This document shows, one piece after another, positions 30,797 to 52,835 of a stretch of DNA of 64,000 nucleotides (positions are counted from its first letter, which is position 1; each line of letters opens with the position of its first letter). Source of the stretch: an uncultured Pseudomonadales bacterium (GTDB lineage Bacteria; Patescibacteriota; Microgenomatia; UBA1400; PJMF01); the NCBI GenBank assembly GCA_964406075.1, contig CAYOQI010000002.1, positions 18,700 to 82,699 on the forward strand. The letters run 5' to 3'. The position numbers and the translations under genes are program-made. The notes beneath the pieces were generated by a model. It ran no database searches and was not told where the DNA came from. It worked only from the letters and a program-made list of their open reading frames with translations.

Positions 30797-33139
30797 TTAA
30801 AGAGTTATCTTTTTTAAGCGTAAGGCATTCCCAACAACCGATACACTTGAAAAAGCCATCGCCATGCCTGCCCAAATTGGGCTTAACAAAATTCCCACAA
30901 ATGGATAAAACACACCAGCTGCTATTGGAATTCCAATCACATTATAGAAAAATGCCCAAAACAGGTTTTGTTTCACAATTTTCATTGTGACCTTTGAAAG
31001 TTTGACAGCTTGAACTACTTTTTCTATATCACCGTGTAGTAAGGTCACATGAGCTGTAGAAATTGCAACATCAGTTCCAGTACTCATGGCAATTCCAACA
31101 TCAGCGGTGGCTAATGCTGGGGCATCATTGACACCATCCCCAACCATCGCAACGTTTTTTCCGCTCTTTTTTAATTCTTGAATGAAATGAGCTTTCTGAT
31201 CAGGCAGAACTCCGGCGATTACCTTGTGAATACCTACTTGCTTGGCAATAAACTCCGCTGTTTTTTGATCATCACCGGACAACATGACCACTTCTACTCC
31301 CATATCATGGAGTGCTTGAACGGTTTGCGGGGCATTGGATTTAATCGTATCGGCCACAAACACCATTCCCAAGAGTTGCTTCTTCTTTGCTAAAAAGATT
31401 GGCGTTTTCCCTACTTTAGTATACTGAATTACTTCTTCATCATTAATTGTAATACCTAACTCAGTCATAAAGTTTTTATTCCCTGCATATAACCATTCAT
31501 CTTGAATTTTTCCTTGGACACCTTTTCCTTCAACAATTGAGAAATCTTCAATCTTTCGTAACCGAATCTTTTCAACTTCAGCTCTTTCAACAATTGCTGA
31601 TGCTAATGGATGCTCAGAATTTTTCTCTAAACTCGCCAGTATGCTTAAAACTTTTTCGGCTGTTTCACCTTTAGATGGAAAAATATCAGTCACGGTTGGT
31701 TTTCCTTGAGTCAGCGTTCCTGTTTTATCCATCACAATTGTATTTACGCTGTGAAGTTTTTCCAAACTTTCTGCATTTTTTATTAAAATTCCTAGTGATG
31801 CTCCTCGTCCAACCGCAGTAATTAAAGCCGTCGGAGTAGCTAGTCCTAGAGCACATGGACAGGCGATAACTAAAACACCAACAAATGCTTTGATCGCTAA
31901 GGGTAAAGCAATACCAAAATTGTCTGTCAAAACTCCATATGTAAGCCAACTCAACAAAGTGAAGGCCGCAATCACAATGACAATGGGAACAAAAACTGCT
32001 GAGACTTGATCAGCAAGTCGTTCAATTGGGGCCTTTGACATTTGAGCATCACTCACCATTTGTACAATTTGTGAAAGTAAGGTTTCTTGTCCAATTTTTT
32101 TCGCTTCAACAATCAGCACACCTTGTTTATTCATCGTGGCTCCAATAACACTGTCACCAACTTTTTTCTCAATCGGTAATGACTCACCCGTAATCATAGA
32201 TTCATCGACAGATGAACTTCCTTCAACGACTTTTCCATCTACAGGAATCTTTGTGCCTGGTTTTATAATCACGAGATCACCAACTTGAACTTCATCAATT
32301 GAAATTTCCATTTCTTTTCCACTTCGCCGTACTAAAGCAGTCTTTGCTTGTAATCCAATCAGTTTTTCTAATGCTTCACCTGTTTTCTTTTTTGATCGAG
32401 CTTCTAAATATTTCCCAAAAAGAATAAATCCAATCACAACAATAGTGACATCAAAATAGGTATCACGTGGAAATCCCCAACGCTCAAAGGTAATTGGGAA
32501 AAAGACAATCAAGGACGAGTAAATAAATGCAGTTAAGGTTCCAATTCCCACTAAACTATCCATATTCGCAACTCGCAACTTTACAAATCGAATCACTGCA
32601 TCAATAAATTGTTTCCCGGAAGTAATTAAAGTGAAGAGCGATAAGAAAAACAAGATTAATGGCCAAAATCTCATTGGTAATGGAAGCATTGGCACCAAGG
32701 GAAATGTTTGGGAAGCTATTTCCCACATCATGACAAAAAATACAAAAACTGCTAAAGGAAAAATTAACTCAACTTTTTTTCTTTCTTCATCAATGTCATT
32801 TTCACTTGGAGGGGCTGCATGAGCACTATGATCTTCCATTTGATGACCATGGTCATGAGAAATTTTTCCCTGAGATGGCATACTCACTTCGCTTTGAGCA
32901 TGCTGTGATTCACCATCTTTCATTAAGTGATATCCATACTGTTCTAGTTCTGAATTCATTTGAGAAATATCCACTTTGTCTGGATTGTAGGTAATTGCAG
33001 CTTTTTCACTCGCAACATTAACGGTGCAGCTTTCAACACCTTGTATTTTTTTTAATGTACGTTGAATGATTGAGCCACAGCTCGCACAGTGCATGCCGTG
33101 AACTTTATAGTGTTGTGTTGTTGTGGAATCTTTTTGCAT
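30797..33139 (-). CDS. copA: Copper-translocating P1B-type ATPase
   Basis: N-terminal HMA motif GMHCASCG, a His-rich stretch, the TM CPC motif ([11 protein letters not shown]), DKTGTLT, and [10 protein letters not shown]. Confidence 0.95.
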
Positions 33140-41329: not shown

Positions 41330-41770
41330 TTATTCCACAATCATTTTTCCAATCATACCCATCTCTCTGTGTTTCATGTAACTACAGTAATACTCAAACG
41401 TCTTTCCGGCCGCATCTGCTGGAACAGTGAACGTAATTGTTTCTTCACCTTCACCTGTAATTTGTGAGGTTTTTGCACCTTCAATTTCATCAATTACAAA
41501 ATCATGAGTGCCCTCTACATTGACCAATTTAACAGTGACTGTTTGACCAGCTTTCACTTTCATTTCAGGTACAGAAAATTTAAAGTTACTACTCTCCACG
41601 GTAAAATCTGCATCTTGTGCCTGCATATTTGTTGTTTCGGTCGTTTCCATCACAGCTGGAATTGAATCTGTTTCAGTAGCAGTATCTGTAGAAGTGGTGG
41701 CTTGTTGAGAACATCCAGCTAAAACAACTGCGGCGACAGGAATAAAAAGTAACGTTCGTATTGATTTCAT
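41330..41770 (-). CDS. Cupredoxin (plastocyanin/azurin-like) lipoprotein
   Basis: Lipobox in MKSIRTLLFIPVAAVVLAGC. Type-1 copper ligands in GTHDF...YYCSYMKHREMGM. Confidence 0.8.
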   Translation of the reverse strand: MKSIRTLLFIPVAAVVLAGCSQQATTSTDTATETDSIPAVMETTETTNMQAQDADFTVESSNFKFSVPEMKVKAGQTVTVKLVNVEGTHDFVIDEIEGAKTSQITGEGEETITFTVPADAAGKTFEYYCSYMKHREMGMIGKMIVE

Positions 41771-41866
41771 TGGGCCTCCTCGATTGACCTTTGGACTTTT
41801 ATAAGTAAAGTACAGAATACTGAAGATTTCAGAATAATACAAGTTGTAGTAGGTGACTATTTACAC

Positions 41867-45993: not shown

Positions 45994-46929
45994 TTAATAA
46001 AACGCTAGCTCAAAATAGGATGTTGTGGGTTTCCCATATTTTCCGGAAATGTCATCTGCATTGGTGTGGTTGAGTATTTCAACTTTTTTTCCTAAAGAAT
46101 TCATAACTTCCAGAATAATCATCAAACTTTGAGGTGAATCGAGATAATCTGAGTTCAACGTAGAAATCAACTCAAAGTTATTTGTCAAAAAGGCCTGTTT
46201 AGTTACTTCATCTTTTTCGAGTGATTCTGCCACAGTCAGATAATGGGAAAAATCAATCGAAGCGACTACAACAGTGTTTTCATCTATCTCTTTTTTTAGA
46301 AAATCTGTAAACGCTTTCCTTTCATCATTCGATAGGTTTTTACGGAAAATAAAAGGTGTCACTTGGACTTCCGGTAAAAAATGTTTGATAAATGGAAGAA
46401 TGCCACCAACACCATGTTCTTTTTGCATGATTGTGTCATTTACAGAAATAAATGAGTATTCAAGCGATTTTTCTATTAAAATAGTGTCACTTCTAACAAC
46501 TCCTAATTTTGTTTCCCAATCTGCAATTGATGTCAGGACTGGAGTACTCCCCACTTCATAATGATTAGGACTGAGCAAAATTATTTTTTCTACCGGCTGA
46601 TCTTTCATTCGATGAAAAAAATCCGCAATCAGCGGACTTGCTAATAAATGATGTGGAATCACTCCACCATAGATTTTTCTGGAATCTTCAATTTGAGAAA
46701 GTTGATTGAGACTTTGATAAAAAGAATGTTCTTCAAAAAATAAAACTGGCAAGGTGAAACGTGACTCTTCTTCTTCACGAACGGTGCCTAAAATATCCGA
46801 AGTTTTGGCCTGAGGATCGGTCGTAGCTAATTCAGAGAATTCGTTTCCAGAATACTTGTATTGAAAACCAAAAATAATGAAAATACTGAAGACAGCTATT
46901 CCCAGGAGGATTTTAGGAATAATGTTCAT
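45994..46929 (-). CDS. Memo/AmmeMemoRadiSam-B-like protein with an N-terminal TM anchor
   Basis: GGVIPHHLLA, LLSPNH and IDFSHY resemble the Memo-family metal-site motifs. ATG 46929 lies 1 nt after the A2M stop. Confidence 0.5.
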   Translation of the reverse strand: MNIIPKILLGIAVFSIFIIFGFQYKYSGNEFSELATTDPQAKTSDILGTVREEEESRFTLPVLFFEEHSFYQSLNQLSQIEDSRKIYGGVIPHHLLASPLIADFFHRMKDQPVEKIILLSPNHYEVGSTPVLTSIADWETKLGVVRSDTILIEKSLEYSFISVNDTIMQKEHGVGGILPFIKHFLPEVQVTPFIFRKNLSNDERKAFTDFLKKEIDENTVVVASIDFSHYLTVAESLEKDEVTKQAFLTNNFELISTLNSDYLDSPQSLMIILEVMNSLGKKVEILNHTNADDISGKYGKPTTSYFELAFY

Positions 46930-46930
46930 G

Positions 46931-49900
46931 TTATGTCTGTAAATCTGGCGGTTTTGATTCAGGAATTTCTGAAATACTGCCAACAGAAGAATGTAAGGCT
47001 TTTAATCTGCGTCGACGACGAATCACAACCGCAATTCCTGCTAACAGTAATCCAATGGCAAGAATACCAAGTAAAACAAATGGGGAAGAAATTAGTGATC
47101 TGAGGAAGTTCCAGATTCGATCAGACCATCGTTCGAGAGCAAGAGCGGCAGCTTTACTCAAAATAATTTTGGGAGTTCCGGTCACGGTAATGGTATCTGA
47201 CTGTGAATATGCATAAATTTCTGGAGCGTACATCAGCTCAGCATGAGCGGGTGGAACGGCAAATGTACCAGCGGAAACAACCCGAGCTTTGTAGGTAAAG
47301 GTGTGAACCCCAGGTCGCAGTTCATACAACGAAATAATAACTCCATCTTCAGTAAATTCACGTTTATCAACACGATACTCATAACTTGGATTCATTTCAT
47401 TCGCCTGTTCGTTGTTGAATACGGTATTGATCGGGATGAGTCCAGCCGGTAAATGGTCATGAATCAGCGCATAGTTTTGATCGGTTTCAGTTCCATAAAT
47501 TTTTAATTTAACCGTTACCGTATCTCCCACTGACAAGGAATACTGTGCTCCTCGATCGGACTCATATTCTCGAGTAATTAGAATGCCATTTCCAAAAGGT
47601 TTGGTTAGATGAGCAGTACGAAACTCTTCTTGCACAAAAGTTGAATAGAGTTGACCTTGTCCATTTTGTTGAAGGGAAATCGTGGAACCGGATTCTTGTA
47701 TCTTATCTAAAGGAATAGGAACTGACGGACTCCAAGCTGTTGAAGCATCGACAGAACCTTGAGAAATTTGTTCACCATCTAAAGAAACAAGGTACGAGTA
47801 ATTTGGAGCAGATTCATTGCCAGTTTGAGCAAACTCACTCAATGACTTCATGACTTGAGCAGTAGCAAAAGTATTGGACCAATACACATTTTGTTGATTA
47901 CGAAGTAGGAATCTGACCGCTTGACTTGCGAGTGTTCGATCACCATTTCCTGCCAGAATCGCTCGCACTGCTAATGCAGTTGAGGTATTTGTTGAGCCAA
48001 ATCGACGTTGCGTCCCACCTTCCCAGAATACTCGATCCCCTTCCGTTTTTCGTTTATCCAACAAAATCTGTAATCCATTCGTTTGTGAATTACTGTCACC
48101 TCGCTTCACATTCGTTAAGACTGCATATGCCACCACATCAGCGGGTAATTGGTTTAAATCTGTAAGGCTCGTAACACTGCTAACACCTTGACCTAGTACC
48201 GTTAATGCATAATTTTTCATGATAAATTCTTCAGCCGAATCTCTCACTTCATTGCCTCTCACATAACTTGATGACGAAGTGAGGTAGTTCGTTGCCCTGT
48301 TTATCATTTCTTCAGGCACTTGATACCCTAACTCTTTTGCCGTAACTAATGATTCGATCACGTAGGCAGTCACAAATGCATCCGCAGTTTGATCATGCCC
48401 CCACCAATTCCATCCACCATTGCTCAATTGATGCTCACCAAGTTTACTGATTCCTTTTTTGACCATCTCATCCATCTCCTCGGACTGAAGAGCCGCAAAA
48501 TACTTCGGATATTTTTTTGCAATTAATACTGGCACCAAACGACTAGTTGTCTGCTCTACACAGCCATACGGGTAATCTACTAAGTACTTCATGGCATCAG
48601 GGAGCGAACCGACCAGGGTGGATGAGAGCAAAAGCTTCGCAGAAGATTTTTGCGGATCAGAATCGGAGTTGAAACGAACCTCATACTCTGTACTACCATC
48701 ACCGACCTGGGCACTACGTTGATAGTATCCAAATTTTCGCACCGGGATCTGAACGATGATTGAGTCAGCACGATCTGTCTGAGTTGTACTCTTGGCGGAA
48801 ATCGTTACTTCAGCTTTTTCTTCTTCTTTGGTGGCCAAAACATCCCAGAAAAGTTGTTGACTGGCTTGACCAGCAATTTCAACTTGTCGTTGAGCATCTT
48901 CTTGAATCTCACCACCTGTAAATCCGAAATCAACGTCAAAAGTCTGTGCTTCATCAGTAAAATTATGGATAACTGCGGAAAGTTCTATTTCATCTCCAAC
49001 TCGAATGATATTTGGGAGGATCGGTCGAACGACAATATCTTTTTGAACTGTTAACTCTGCTGTCGATTGTCCGACTTTTGTATCTGTCGTAGCCGCAACT
49101 CCAGCTACTACCCAAGTTGTTAAATTATCAGGCAGTGTAAATCGAATTTGAGCATATCCATTTGCATCAGTCCGAACAACCGGATTCCAATAGGCGACAT
49201 CTTCAAACTGTTTGCGAACATCACTTTTCTGATTATGTACCCACACACCATCTGCAAAAAATGTTTGATATTTTTCAACACTTAAGTTGTAAACAGTCAC
49301 TGGTTTACGCAACCATTCAATAGAATCAACTGTTACTTCCTGATCATTTGAACTACGTAATTGATCACCAATTTGAATCTGATCAGCGGTTTGCCATGCC
49401 CCATTGACCCACAAAATATGATTGGGAGTAATTTCTAAATTGCCATTAATAGATAAGTAGCCATCTTCCTGTTCTTCATGTGTATCAGTAACTTTGGCTT
49501 TGATTAACTCTGAACTATATTCATTTGCTCGGGTTAAAATCCAGTCGCCTTTTTTAACATCTTCAATACTCTTTGTTTTTCCATTCACCATCAAAATTTG
49601 AGTGTCAGCGGTAAAACACCCACCTCCACCTTCTGCATTAAATACATTTATCCCCTCCAAAGAATGAGCTTCTTCGGTATTTTCCCATCGTTCTATCCAA
49701 AACGTTTCAAAAATATTTTGAAGCTGGCTATCTGCCAACTCAAACAAGGCTTTATCCACACTCCAAACAGCCACTTCTGCTCCACCCACTGGATTACCTG
49801 CCTGATCTTTTGTATACACATCAATCACTGCTGTTTCTCCAGGACCGTAGGTTTTCTTTTCAGATTGAATGCCAACTTGAATCTTTTTTTGCTGAGCACT

Positions 49901-52114
49901 GACAGGTAAACGTACTGAAACTGAGTCAAAACCTCCATCTGAAAATCCACTAACACGAGCAAATATATTCGGCATGTCGTCAGCATCGAGGGGAATATTT
50001 ACCTCTGCATTTTTCCCCGAAAAAGATACCACTTGATACCGATCTACCCTTCCTCGTTGAATCGCTAATAACACATCAATATCTGGAATAGTTGAGGTCA
50101 AAGTTAATCTCGCACTTTCACCAGGTTGATACATTTCTTTGTCAGGATTTATGGAAAGGTACGAGGATTGACCGTCATTGTAGTACGGCACATCAAACTC
50201 ACTTATCCATGCACCAAATTCTTTTACCACAGGATTCCCTGTAGGATCTTTTACTTCGACTGAAAAACGATAGTAGCCAGTCTTATCCGGAGTAAAGGAA
50301 ACCGACGCTTGACCACTCTGATTGGTAGTGATTTTTTGTGACGGATAATCCGCTGTTTCTTGTCGATATTGAGGATACTTTTGGTTCGGATCAATATACG
50401 ACACCCAAGTTTCTCGCTTGATCTTCACTTCTACTTCAATATTCGCCACTGATTCTTGTTTTCGAGATCTCAACTCAAGTGGTAGGGTATAGAGTTCATT
50501 TATTTTTCCTTGATAACTTCCCGTTGGTTGTCGATAGATCGCTACTTTTCCGGCATACACAATAAAATTCTTTCGTGCCAAAACAGGATTTTGAGAGGCA
50601 TCCAAGAATGAAGCTTCCACTGTAATCACTTTTGATTTGCCATTCATTTCAAATTTTGATGTATCAAGTACTATTTCAGCTTCACCTTGTGTGTTGAGTG
50701 AAACGAAATCTTCTTTGAGTTTGTTCCCTCTTCCCCAATTTCCATAACGGTATTTATCATCTGGAAGCCACTGGTAGTCAGAGAAGTAATCATATTCATA
50801 AAAATCTGATGAATCGACGGTGTACTTCACTTCTTGACTCGACAATGGTTGACCAGAGAAAAATGCTCCTGATAGGTTCAACTTCATTTGATCACCACGA
50901 TGATACTCAAAACCCTCACCCTCTAATTCAAGAAAGTATTCTGGTTTTCTAAAATACTCGACTTGAAAACTTGCAGATCCATAGAAATTCGAGTAATCCC
51001 GATTTGCTTCAACTTGATCTGACAAAGCATCAATAATGACAGTGTAGTAACCAGGATTAATATCTGAAGGAAGTTGGAATTCACCATGCACTGATCCTTG
51101 ATCAGAAATAGGAAGGTTTTGATCAAAAACCGGATGTTGAAAATCCCAATCTTTAATAATACGAGTTCTGACTAATCCAGTAGGAATCGTATAGCGAGCG
51201 TCATCATCATCACGCAATACTGATTTGAAATAGAGTGTGTCACCAGGTTGATAGAGAGGGCGATCAGTGAATGTAAAGTACTTTACCTCCCGTTCTTTCG
51301 GACGAAAAATTCGATACGACACCGAGCCACTATTTAAGTATTTTAAATTAATTGGAATGACAGCGATGTGTCCACCACTTCTTAAGAGCGCAATATCTAC
51401 ATCCTTATTGATAGGCAATGTACCAATTCCTCGATCATCAAGCACTGTTGATCCAAGATCGGTGCGCTGATTTTTCAGTCCATACAGTGACACGGTACCG
51501 GAAGTTAATTTTCTTTTGGTTCTAAAATCCTGCCCCCAAAGGATAAATTGGTTATCTCCTTCTTTACTGAGTAATCCAATTGGTGACCGAATAATCATCA
51601 CATCTCGGACCAGATCCCCGGTACGAATTGTGAGATACCAAATACCAGATTCACTTAAAGGTAAGGAGATTTTCGATGCAGAATCATATCCGGATCCAAG
51701 AAATTGTTGAAAAGAAGTAACTTGAGTTAATACTGAGGTATCAATTTGACCACCACTTTGTTTCCCTTCATCATTATATTGGAGGTATTTAAGCAGAGTT
51801 TCTTCAGATGCTTGGAATAACGTAAATGTGGCATCTCCAGATACTTCCCAACTTCCTACTTCTATAGTCGGATCCGCAGTCGAAGCCAAAGTAATAAGAC
51901 CACCTCGGTTTTCTTGCTTCTGTATCATCATGCGAGGGGTACCACGAATGATTTGCTTCCATCCATAACTAAGACCAGCTTGAATACTTTGAGAAGAAAA
52001 AATCAATCCACCAATGACTAGGATGAAAAAACTAAGGGTGAAAAAAAGAAGTCGAGGTATTTTGACTTGGGGTAAAGCAAATAATTTTTTCTTTACTTTT
52101 CGAGCGTTACTCAT
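46931..52114 (-). CDS. Bacterial alpha-2-macroglobulin family protein (thioester-containing) with an inserted Hint domain
   Basis: An N-terminal TM anchor, repeated MG-like beta domains, the thioester motif YPYGCVEQ (CVEQ = 48551-48562) and a C-terminal TM helix. The preferred start is ATG 52114 (MSNARKVKKK), which overlaps the upstream stop. Confidence 0.88.
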   Translation of the reverse strand: MSNARKVKKKLFALPQVKIPRLLFFTLSFFILVIGGLIFSSQSIQAGLSYGWKQIIRGTPRMMIQKQENRGGLITLASTADPTIEVGSWEVSGDATFTLFQASEETLLKYLQYNDEGKQSGGQIDTSVLTQVTSFQQFLGSGYDSASKISLPLSESGIWYLTIRTGDLVRDVMIIRSPIGLLSKEGDNQFILWGQDFRTKRKLTSGTVSLYGLKNQRTDLGSTVLDDRGIGTLPINKDVDIALLRSGGHIAVIPINLKYLNSGSVSYRIFRPKEREVKYFTFTDRPLYQPGDTLYFKSVLRDDDDARYTIPTGLVRTRIIKDWDFQHPVFDQNLPISDQGSVHGEFQLPSDINPGYYTVIIDALSDQVEANRDYSNFYGSASFQVEYFRKPEYFLELEGEGFEYHRGDQMKLNLSGAFFSGQPLSSQEVKYTVDSSDFYEYDYFSDYQWLPDDKYRYGNWGRGNKLKEDFVSLNTQGEAEIVLDTSKFEMNGKSKVITVEASFLDASQNPVLARKNFIVYAGKVAIYRQPTGSYQGKINELYTLPLELRSRKQESVANIEVEVKIKRETWVSYIDPNQKYPQYRQETADYPSQKITTNQSGQASVSFTPDKTGYYRFSVEVKDPTGNPVVKEFGAWISEFDVPYYNDGQSSYLSINPDKEMYQPGESARLTLTSTIPDIDVLLAIQRGRVDRYQVVSFSGKNAEVNIPLDADDMPNIFARVSGFSDGGFDSVSVRLPVSAQQKKIQVGIQSEKKTYGPGETAVIDVYTKDQAGNPVGGAEVAVWSVDKALFELADSQLQNIFETFWIERWENTEEAHSLEGINVFNAEGGGGCFTADTQILMVNGKTKSIEDVKKGDWILTRANEYSSELIKAKVTDTHEEQEDGYLSINGNLEITPNHILWVNGAWQTADQIQIGDQLRSSNDQEVTVDSIEWLRKPVTVYNLSVEKYQTFFADGVWVHNQKSDVRKQFEDVAYWNPVVRTDANGYAQIRFTLPDNLTTWVVAGVAATTDTKVGQSTAELTVQKDIVVRPILPNIIRVGDEIELSAVIHNFTDEAQTFDVDFGFTGGEIQEDAQRQVEIAGQASQQLFWDVLATKEEEKAEVTISAKSTTQTDRADSIIVQIPVRKFGYYQRSAQVGDGSTEYEVRFNSDSDPQKSSAKLLLSSTLVGSLPDAMKYLVDYPYGCVEQTTSRLVPVLIAKKYPKYFAALQSEEMDEMVKKGISKLGEHQLSNGGWNWWGHDQTADAFVTAYVIESLVTAKELGYQVPEEMINRATNYLTSSSSYVRGNEVRDSAEEFIMKNYALTVLGQGVSSVTSLTDLNQLPADVVAYAVLTNVKRGDSNSQTNGLQILLDKRKTEGDRVFWEGGTQRRFGSTNTSTALAVRAILAGNGDRTLASQAVRFLLRNQQNVYWSNTFATAQVMKSLSEFAQTGNESAPNYSYLVSLDGEQISQGSVDASTAWSPSVPIPLDKIQESGSTISLQQNGQGQLYSTFVQEEFRTAHLTKPFGNGILITREYESDRGAQYSLSVGDTVTVKLKIYGTETDQNYALIHDHLPAGLIPINTVFNNEQANEMNPSYEYRVDKREFTEDGVIISLYELRPGVHTFTYKARVVSAGTFAVPPAHAELMYAPEIYAYSQSDTITVTGTPKIILSKAAALALERWSDRIWNFLRSLISSPFVLLGILAIGLLLAGIAVVIRRRRRLKALHSSVGSISEIPESKPPDLQT
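49232..49618 (-). other. Hint / bacterial intein-like (BIL) domain inside the A2M ORF (129 aa)
   Basis: It starts CFTADTQILMVNG, contains TPNH, and ends YQTFFADGVWVHN. The next residue is Gln. Confidence 0.8.
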
Positions 52115-52835
52115 TGGGAGCCACACCATAGATAACAATGGTTGTGCCTGGGTTAGATTCTGATGCAGCGATACTCTTTTTGCCTTCAGGAACGACCGGA
52201 TGTGCCCAGTCATAGAGAAGAGCTACTTCTTCAGTTTTCATATTGATACAACCATGCGACATGGGATGACCAAAATTGTCATGCCAATACGTACCATGAA
52301 TACCAAATCCACGTGTTTTAGGAATTTCCTCATTGTAGAAAAACATCGTGTACGGAACATTTGGAAGATAGTAATAGGTGCGATTGGCTTTCGACCCACC
52401 TTCCATCTTGGTATATCTCAGTTTTGTCCAAATTTTAAAAGTACCGGTCGGTGTTCTTCCCCACTTTCCTGATGAAATCAGGAAACTATAGATGAGTTGA
52501 TCCCCTTCAAAGGCGTATATTCTTTGTGCTCCCAAATCTACTTCAATGCGTTTATCAGCTCGAGGATCAATCGGTTCGGTCGTATCACCCAGAACCTGCG
52601 TAGAAGATTGATATTGTTCTGCAGGCACATCTACAAGTTTGCCCATGAACTCACCAGCTGTTTCTGTTCTATATTCACTTTGCAGACCATTTTCAAAAAT
52701 AGGATAAATAGGGAATCGAGAACGATTTTGAAGAGAGACAGAACTAAAAGCCAATGCTGAGGCTACCGCAAGAAAAATAGTCTGAATAATGTACTCACGT
52801 CTACGCATGTTTTTCCTTAAATTTGATTCACTCAT
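52107..52835 (-). CDS. L,D-transpeptidase (YkuD domain)
   Basis: HGTYWHDNFGHPMSHGCINM catalytic His/Cys motif and an N-terminal TM anchor. Confidence 0.88.
   Translation of the reverse strand: MSESNLRKNMRRREYIIQTIFLAVASALAFSSVSLQNRSRFPIYPIFENGLQSEYRTETAGEFMGKLVDVPAEQYQSSTQVLGDTTEPIDPRADKRIEVDLGAQRIYAFEGDQLIYSFLISSGKWGRTPTGTFKIWTKLRYTKMEGGSKANRTYYYLPNVPYTMFFYNEEIPKTRGFGIHGTYWHDNFGHPMSHGCINMKTEEVALLYDWAHPVVPEGKKSIAASESNPGTTIVIYGVAPNE

Follow-up and report, generated by a model that had tools for sequence, protein, structure and literature searches.

Alpha-2-macroglobulins (A2Ms) and the complement proteins are spring-loaded molecules that are always triggered from outside, by a protease that cuts a single loop. 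Here we describe a 64,000-nucleotide stretch of Patescibacteria DNA (contig CAYOQI010000002.1, positions 18,700 to 82,699; from here on, the window) in which the gene of a thioester-type A2M carries, with near certainty as to both its identity and its position in this bait loop, a Hint domain of bacterial intein-like (BIL) type. Hint and A2M are known families, and automated annotation (Pfam lists) already sees both domains; what is new is their conserved fusion at the trigger loop with a junction signature of its own, written here as GG/C...HN/x-K-G, with slashes at the Hint borders. No paper on a Hint-in-A2M architecture turned up in a search of 8 million full texts. The A2Ms of Patescibacteria are mentioned in the literature as possible protection against host proteases, and the Hint was not noticed.

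In complement C3, C4 and C5, a folded and removable domain, the anaphylatoxin domain, stands at the equivalent place, between the MG6 halves and before F-x-[DE]-x-x-x-W. In these proteins its removal is the activating event. The anaphylatoxin fold is unrelated to that of Hint, and it is taken out by convertase, whereas the Hint would leave by its own chemistry. Type-A BILs are Hint domains that end in His-Asn and lack a nucleophile at +1; they mostly cleave, but can also splice by aminolysis, a freed amine attacking the N-terminal thioester (PMC4031507). They are located in variable regions of non-essential secreted or surface proteins of bacteria (PMC7765530). In BIL2, from the BUBL1 polyubiquitin-like locus of Tetrahymena thermophila, the thioester is resolved by the epsilon-amine of a lysine, which yields an isopeptide (PMC8616854). 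Regarding the host protein, the A2Ms of E. coli (ECAM/YfhM) and Salmonella (SaA2M; 4rtd, 5a42, 4u48) share with the window A2M the layout of MG domains, bait-region domain (BRD), thioester domain (TED) with CxEQ and EXMY motif, and are likewise membrane-tethered and outward-facing (profile match E 5e-55). The EXMY motif of ECAM shields the thioester (PMC4498604).

An intein-like domain in the bait loop

Without its Hint, the open reading frame (ORF) is a bona fide A2M. Pfam found MG2, A2M_BRD, A2M, TED_complement and bMG10, all above threshold, and the type I architecture is present: a chain of MG domains, the bait-region domain, the TED with CxEQ and a C-terminal MG domain. Thioester residues Cys1218, Glu1220 and Gln1221 are invariant across 44 aligned sequences, as are Met1661 and Tyr1662 of ELMY, an EXMY-type motif, in the aligned A2Ms. 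ECAM and SaA2M were the best matches in the PDB both by sequence and by fold. In Foldseek, a 1200-residue AlphaFold model (predicted local distance difference test, pLDDT, 81.7) retrieved the Salmonella and E. coli A2Ms at E ~1e-45 and also matched C5, A2ML1 and CD109.

The Hint block lies in frame within this ORF, flanked by ...NAEGGGG and QKSDVRKQFEDVAYWNP, and its minus-strand translation reads CFTADTQILMVNG...TPNH...VYNLSVEKYQTFFADGVWVHN over 129 aa, with VHN at residues 992-994 (coordinates of all features in Table 1). The top-scoring Pfam model was PT-HINT (PF07591; cut-off 27.7), with 57.2 bits for the Hint alone (E 2.8e-15) and 51.9 in the whole protein, where it falls between A2M_BRD and A2M. 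Scanned alone, the block also matched Intein_splicing (37.3 bits, cut-off 35.8) and Vint (34.3 bits, cut-off 27), and NCBIfam intein_Cterm scored 26.4 bits against a cut-off of 15.6. The best sequence match among solved structures was the BIL of C. thermocellum (2lwy), with E 6.4e-9 for the sequence by itself and 3.3e-16 for the family profile; the two align from end to end, and both have VYN in block F and finish in HN. When the AlphaFold model of the domain (pLDDT 89.8; predicted template modelling score, pTM, 0.84) was searched with Foldseek, the top hits were this BIL and Tetrahymena BIL2 (6y75/6tmm), the closest solved fold, with template modelling (TM) scores of 0.80-0.82 for BIL2. DnaB, gp41-1 and RecA inteins, Hedgehog and Vint came at lower ranks, and TM scores of 0.7-0.85 to BILs, inteins and Hedgehog 1at0 assign the model to the Hint fold.

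Judged by its sequence and predicted fold, the block is best described as a type-A BIL domain of the PT-HINT clade, apparently catalytically complete. Like 2lwy and PT-HINT, it has Cys1, the block-B TxxH and a terminal His-Asn without a nucleophile at +1, its sequence is closest to a BIL, and it stands in a variable region of a surface protein. Unlike other type-A BILs, which stand in an arbitrary variable region or at a pre-toxin junction, it has an A2M as host and occupies a functional trigger loop, and it is inherited vertically in hundreds of proteins, with a fixed signature. BIL2 differs in being eukaryotic, in having ubiquitin-like flanks and in conjugating in trans too, and is ~23% identical. 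We did not find the pre-toxin arrangement of PT-HINT: an MG domain, the TED, bMG10 and a transmembrane anchor follow the Hint, and Pfam detected no toxin domain. Nor is it a Hedgehog-type Hog domain, which would lack the terminal His-Asn and have a sterol- or adduct-recognition region behind the Hint core: it stops at His-Asn after 129 aa, nothing extra follows the core, and Pfam Hint (Hog) matched below threshold and only over the N-terminal 100 positions of the model.

Regarding the position, the alpha' chains of C3, C4 and C5 align to the window A2M from just after their anaphylatoxin domains. The alignment of human A2M starts at its residue 729, which pairs with residue 997 of the window A2M, and the human bait region comprises residues 690-728 (PMC8267569); therefore, the end of the Hint coincides with that of the human bait. 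In the case of ECAM, alignment to the family profile runs as far as chain position 901 and resumes at 957. With a numbering offset of 22, fixed by Cys1187, the unaligned stretch opposite the Hint and its linkers is residues 924-978, which overlaps the disordered, protease-cut segment Arg923-Leu942 (PMC4498604). In the 1200-residue model, a confident Hint lies between two segments with pLDDT <50, aa 851-864 and 995-1005 (model residues 552-565 and 696-706). Read from pLDDT and secondary structure along the chain, the order is BRD helices, linker, Hint, linker and first strand of the next MG domain. The model thus agrees with an insertion in the bait loop between two predicted disordered linkers. 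Downstream, 224 residues separate Asn994, the end of the Hint, from the thioester Cys1218.

We aligned the 120 best full-length homologues (40-47% identical), 119 of which bear the Hint, at the same column in every case. None of these 119 deviates at Cys1, Phe2, the block-B His or the terminal His-Asn, and Gly occupies -1 in 120/120. Gly is also at -1 in all 269 A2M-type Hints of a wider set that includes representatives from an exhaustive search. In this set, the +1 residue is Gln in 145, Asp in 61, Glu in 36, Gly in 14, Asn in four, Lys in three, Phe in two, Ser in two, Leu in one and Ala in one; Cys or Thr occurs at +1 in 0/269 and Ser in 2/269. A feature that the original prediction did not mention is the near-invariant Lys at +2, present in 263 of the 269, which completes the junction signature of the family.

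These alignments bear directly on whether the block is an ordinary class-1 intein with a misread +1 codon, or a mobile intein that arrived recently. Its blocks A, B, F and G are intein-like, and the Intein_splicing and intein_Cterm models were matched; class-1 mini-inteins (Ssp DnaB, gp41-1, Mtu RecA) have the same fold and the same residues in these blocks, and are its next-best structural matches. However, +1 is non-nucleophilic in 267/269 independent sequences from many assemblies, the Hint is 125-129 aa long throughout the homologues with no homing endonuclease, it is inserted in a variable linker rather than in a conserved active site, and it co-diverges with its host (r = 0.73; see below). 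Neither is its occurrence sporadic, as that of mini-inteins is. Inteins usually have Asp at the block-F VY[DN]L position, where the A2M Hint has Asn. We regard this explanation as next to impossible: the comparative data at +1 and the co-divergence refute both a sequencing error and a mobile intein.

A word-indexed homologue search with the Hint alone gave no matches, and an all-against-all search of representatives was used instead. This exhaustive search returned 340 cluster representatives (50% identity level, E <= 1e-30); among the best 150 listed, most span the Hint and both A2M flanks, in proteins of ~1650-1800 aa. Gottesman-, Davies-, Woese-, Roizman-, Woyke- and Blackburnbacteria are the sources named among the homologues, and a scan of species-representative genomes added WWE3, Moranbacteria, 'Patescibacteria group' and some implausibly labelled metagenome-assembled genomes (MAGs). 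Hint-in-A2M is a conserved architecture in hundreds of proteins of Patescibacteria, a group also called the candidate phyla radiation (CPR).

The original prediction, made from the letters of the window alone, had placed an in-frame block of 129 aa within a thioester A2M at 49232-49618, and both translation and ORF confirm it exactly. Cys1, TPNH, the terminal His-Asn and Gln at +1 are all there in the translation, the distance from the F-x-[DE]-x-x-x-W segment after the block to the thioester had been put at about 220 residues, and the Pfam scores recover the Hint and A2M domains that it named. The comparative data likewise bear out a BIL-like Hint instead of a canonical intein, and the human and ECAM alignments and the model agree on the bait region. 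What did not survive is the view of the insert as an oddity of a single gene, given its conservation in hundreds of Patescibacteria proteins.

A second, larger and more divergent A2M subfamily (L015, L016, L017 and L019; ORFs of 2093-2285 aa) shows this Hint insertion too, and its junctions, GGG/CF...HN/QKG, are the same as in the main family. One of its copies (L017) is in a MAG labelled as a Bathyarchaeia archaeon, and several others come from MAGs that carry the labels Gammaproteobacteria, Nevskiaceae or Bdellovibrionales. Such labels on Patescibacteria-like contigs seem to be mistakes of binning or labelling.

The nearest relatives outside A2Ms are tandem arrays of 2-6 PT-HINT domains (P0277, P0242, P0281, P0282, P0286, P0303 and P0307), joined head to tail by Lys-Gly-Gly(-Gly) linkers as ...HN/KGGG/CF.... 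Their hosts are large surface proteins whose N-terminal domains are PKD, Big, cadherin-like or pilin-type. P0277 has five Hint copies, and one array, in an Omnitrophota genome, is labelled 'polymorphic toxin-type HINT'. We know of no description of such abutting Hint arrays or of their processing products.

Inheritance and loss of the Hint

Mean pairwise identity is 55% for the Hint and 53% for the host core, and the distance matrices of the two correlate (r = 0.73, a value that 0/500 permutations reached). Because the identities are alike and the matrices correlate, the Hint is inherited mainly vertically, under purifying selection over the whole domain. Against this stands the correlation between control host blocks, 0.85 +/- 0.02, which is somewhat higher than that of Hint and host, so some exchange between lineages is possible. 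The G+C content is 0.35 in the Hint segment, 0.41 in the whole gene and 0.38 in the window; this is a small difference, and a composition rich in Lys, Asn and Ile may be its simple cause.

About 95% of the relatives retain the Hint. It is absent from eight A2Ms (P0115, P0132, P0133, P0135, P0136, P0146, P0149 and P0153), and also from loci L024 and L031. At their site there is a plain poly-Gly run, AEGGG-GGG-GExR...FKDTAYWNP, with no Gln-Lys. Since these forms are scattered –P0133, P0135, P0136 and P0149 make up a group separate from P0146– the sequences point to at least two loss events, and up to five by neighbour-joining. P0146 is still 80% identical to P0087, which bears the Hint. Between Leu852 and Phe1003, the linker counts 20-25 residues (mode 21) once the Hint is removed, and 20-24 (mode 21) in the Hint-less proteins. 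At the DNA level, the closest pair, L081 and L082, reads AEKGG/Hint/QKGGGGR and AEKGG-GGGGEGR, which, judged at 80% protein identity, is compatible with loss by deletion among Gly codons.

Hint-less baits have 6-8 consecutive glycines. Such a poly-Gly bait would resist most proteases and yet fit as a substrate of lysostaphin-type Gly-Gly endopeptidases, and it may be a decoy for cell-wall-cutting enzymes. In the MAG of L024, a second A2M copy (L025, 6001-6305) loses its frame at the bait and runs into stop codons after ...GGPEMGEEEV, which reflects either a pseudogene or misassembly of the Gly-codon run.

Excision, re-joining and other possible outcomes

With its catalytic residues invariant, the Hint is expected to autoprocess, and likely does so. 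Following the chemistry of other Hint domains, Cys866 would form a thioester at Gly865 after folding (N-S acyl shift), Asn994 would cyclise and cut the Asn994-Gln995 bond, and the 14-kDa Hint would remove itself from the bait loop. A catalytically silent Hint, kept as a structural decoration of the bait or as a binding module, would suit the independent domain on flexible linkers seen in the model. The N- and C-termini of the Hint fold lie side by side, and it can therefore sit in a host loop without disturbing it. Even so, we hold this to be highly improbable, as the catalytic residues are invariant or nearly so while the remaining domain varies (~55% mean identity). A dead decoration was rejected on the conservation of Cys1, the block-B Thr and His and the final His-Asn in 119 sequences, and of Gly at -1 in 269.

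We tentatively prefer excision with re-joining of the two A2M halves. Here, an amine would attack the Gly865 thioester: either the new alpha-amine of residue 995, by the published route of type-A BILs, or the epsilon-amine of Lys996, which would give an isopeptide as in Tetrahymena BIL2. The product would be a native spring-loaded trap with a Gly-rich bait of ~21 residues, equivalent to the Hint-less orthologues, and a later protease cut in this short bait would fire the thioester as in other A2Ms.

Re-joining is favoured because Hint-less orthologues with a linker of equal length appear interchangeable with Hint-bearing ones, and because the thioester CVEQ and ELMY are conserved while other A2Ms fire once their bait is permanently nicked. 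It is also favoured because amine ligation is documented for type-A BILs and Lys-isopeptide ligation for BIL2, and because the Lys at +2 goes with the Hint and not with the A2M. This last tie follows from its absence in Hint-less A2Ms and from the frequency of Lys at +1 or +2 in related non-A2M Hints (50/71). By analogy, the invariant Lys could act as the amine nucleophile, and the BIL2 reaction could explain why it is invariant.

Several points weigh against re-joining. Published assays of BILs yield mainly cleavage and not spliced products (PMC7664689, PMC4031507) and thus favour a nicked product. The role given to the Lys at +2 is a guess, with a protease site or a helper in catalysis as alternatives. 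Moreover, the bait loop tolerates nearly any sequence –human A2M is functional with a Gly-Gly-Ser bait (PMC8267569)– and an idle passenger should go by sloppy deletion. Retention at this level, together with an evolution no faster than that of the host, suggests a positive function of the Hint beyond its own removal, for example as a self-trigger, a timer or in trans-conjugation.

Along these lines, the Hint could be a trigger or second warhead, with a protease-independent opening of the bait, self-timed or induced by a nucleophile, that fires the TED thioester and/or ligates the N-terminal half through Gly865 to a lysine, in cis (Lys996 isopeptide) or in trans, on a host-cell surface or an attacking protease. 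We see this as a possible but rather unlikely role.

Cleavage without ligation is in our estimate unlikely. Here, the Hint would cut at one junction or at both, and the split MG domain and the two membrane anchors would keep the resulting two A2M chains together. The nick could belong to maturation, comparable to beta/alpha processing in C3, C4 and C5, and the Hint would then remain as an anaphylatoxin-like plug up to its slower C-terminal cut; or the nick could fire the thioester independently of any protease, as a self-trigger or timer, e.g., for covalent attachment to a nearby surface. BIL domains do give mostly N- and C-cleavage products in experiments (PMC7664689, PMC4031507), the Hint stands at the site of the bait region and the anaphylatoxin domain, hydrophobic anchors at both ends would keep both chains on the cell, and its strong retention and slow evolution suggest a useful activity. 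However, any cut in the bait fires the characterised A2Ms (PMC4498604, PMC9352918), and a constitutive nick would waste the thioester and the ELMY shield. Besides, the Hint-less orthologues with their equal linker, one pair being 80% identical, argue that both forms are functionally interchangeable, and the invariant Lys at +2 is left unexplained.

A self-triggering or two-chain A2M was the outcome originally proposed, and it stands as one of several that the data allow; the equal-length linkers, the retained thioester and ELMY and the known re-joining by amines count against it. Comparison of orthologues with and without the insert had been suggested as its check. Hint-less A2Ms do exist, and their linker, with the same mode of 21, speaks against two chains.

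Finally, an external nucleophile could resolve the Gly865 thioester and attach the N-terminal 865-residue fragment to a target, candidates being a lysine of an attacking protease, a cell-wall peptide, a lipid or a host-cell surface protein. This would make a second warhead at the bait, like the cholesterol transfer of Hedgehog or the ubiquitin-like conjugation of BIL2. In favour of such trans-conjugation, BIL2 conjugates its N-extein to lysines of other proteins (PMC8616854), the Gly at -1 is invariant and its flanks are flexible poly-Gly, the protein faces outward, and the group of the organism is inferred to be host-attached. We consider it improbable nonetheless, since no acceptor is identifiable, the L,D-transpeptidase encoded upstream is not a conserved neighbour, and the Lys at +2 is expected to compete in cis with any external nucleophile.

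Host gene, neighbours and significance

The A2M ORF probably starts at Met34 (52112-52114) rather than at its first codon, because an identical copy in a public protein collection, P0001, is 1727 aa long (100% identity). The protein has transmembrane segments at both ends and no lipobox anchor. Hydrophobic segments comparable to the N-terminal one were found in 149/161 homologues and to the C-terminal one in 156/161. Compared with ECAM and SaA2M, the window A2M is thus anchored by transmembrane helices instead of a lipobox, and its bait is very short, Gly-rich and, in most members of the family, interrupted by the Hint.

Table 1. Features of the A2M gene, its Hint domain and the neighbouring genes in the window.
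Feature	Position	Residues	Strand	Evidence or remark
Thioester-type A2M ORF	46931..52213		minus	single uninterrupted ORF, 1760 codons
N-terminal hydrophobic segment, signal anchor or signal peptide	51995..52051	aa 55-73	minus	19-mer, Kyte-Doolittle 2.5
A2M bait-region domain (Pfam A2M_BRD)	49736..50158	aa 686-826	minus	E 2.6e-17
N-side bait linker SLEGINVFNAEGGGG	49619..49663	aa 851-865	minus	ends in invariant Gly-Gly ahead of Cys1
Hint / BIL-like domain	49232..49618	aa 866-994 (129 aa)	minus	translation, Pfam, NCBIfam, PDB, Foldseek
Cys1 codon	49616..49618	Cys866	minus	Cys in 119/119 Hint-bearing homologues; predicted N-S acyl shift nucleophile for Gly865-Cys866
Block B motif TPNH	49418..49429	aa 929-932	minus	Thr 118/119, His 119/119
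Blocks F/G VYNLSVEKYQTFFADGVWVHN, terminal His-Asn	49232..49294	aa 974-994	minus	His-Asn 119/119
+1 and +2 residues	49226..49231	Gln995, Lys996	minus	no Cys/Ser/Thr at +1
C-side bait linker QKSDVRKQFED	49199..49231	aa 995-1005	minus	Arg1000 in 120/120
Pfam A2M domain (post-bait MG domain, from AYWNP)	48929..49195	aa 1007-1095	minus	E 9.3e-23
Thioester motif GCVEQ	48551-48565	aa 1217-1221	minus	sequence match
bMG10 / C-terminal MG domain, including ELMY (47228-47239)	47219..47587		minus	Pfam and motif
C-terminal transmembrane anchor, then RRRRR	47021..47077		minus	Kyte-Doolittle 3.0
Memo-like gene (Pfam PF01875)	45994..46983		minus	Pfam Memo E 4e-24
Cupredoxin / plastocyanin-like copper protein gene	41330-41842		minus	near the A2M-Memo pair
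YkuD L,D-transpeptidase gene	52107-52835		minus	immediately upstream; overlaps the upstream extension of the A2M ORF

Directly downstream of A2M lies a Memo-like ORF, and in the window the two ORFs overlap. Memo follows A2M in 14/24 related loci plus L081 and L082, Hint-less A2Ms included (L001-L005, L007-L011, L014, L020, L024, L032, L081 and L082). Because it has a membrane segment of its own at the N-terminus (MNIIPKILLGIAVFSIFIIFGF), the Memo-like protein of the window is probably extracytoplasmic, and its gene possibly forms one operon with A2M. PADLOC defence models matched neither the A2M nor the Memo-like gene.

The A2M-Memo pair may have a copper theme around it. Eukaryotic Memo has been reported to be copper-dependent, a cupredoxin gene lies near the pair in the window and another directly after Memo in L081 (9282-9713), and positions 30797-33139 of the window encode a P-type ATPase of copper type that includes an HMA domain.

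On the other side, the adjacency of YkuD and A2M recalls the proteobacterial yfhM-pbpC pairing. However, there is no PBP1C partner here, and the conserved neighbour is the Memo-like gene. A tblastn search did not find the YkuD L,D-transpeptidase beside A2M in 24 related loci, and for this reason it was rejected as a conserved partner of A2M.

Across a large radiation of ultra-small and probably host-attached bacteria, a module for autocatalytic cutting and joining is built into the trigger loop of an A2M, where its chemistry has apparently been kept intact. If the A2M halves are re-joined, it would be a rare domesticated splicing element without the usual nucleophile, with a candidate lysine-isopeptide route. 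If the outcome is a nick or an outward conjugation, the protein would be a self-activating thioester protein, with a bearing on defence or on sticking to hosts. If the Hint is a trigger or warhead, these would be the first self-activating members of the A2M/complement family and the first case of BIL-mediated isopeptide conjugation in bacteria, possibly for covalent attachment of epibiont to host. For the engineering of self-triggering traps or ligation tags, the fusion could also be a natural template. Whatever the outcome, it links two protein chemistries that are each well studied and whose combination has not been reported.

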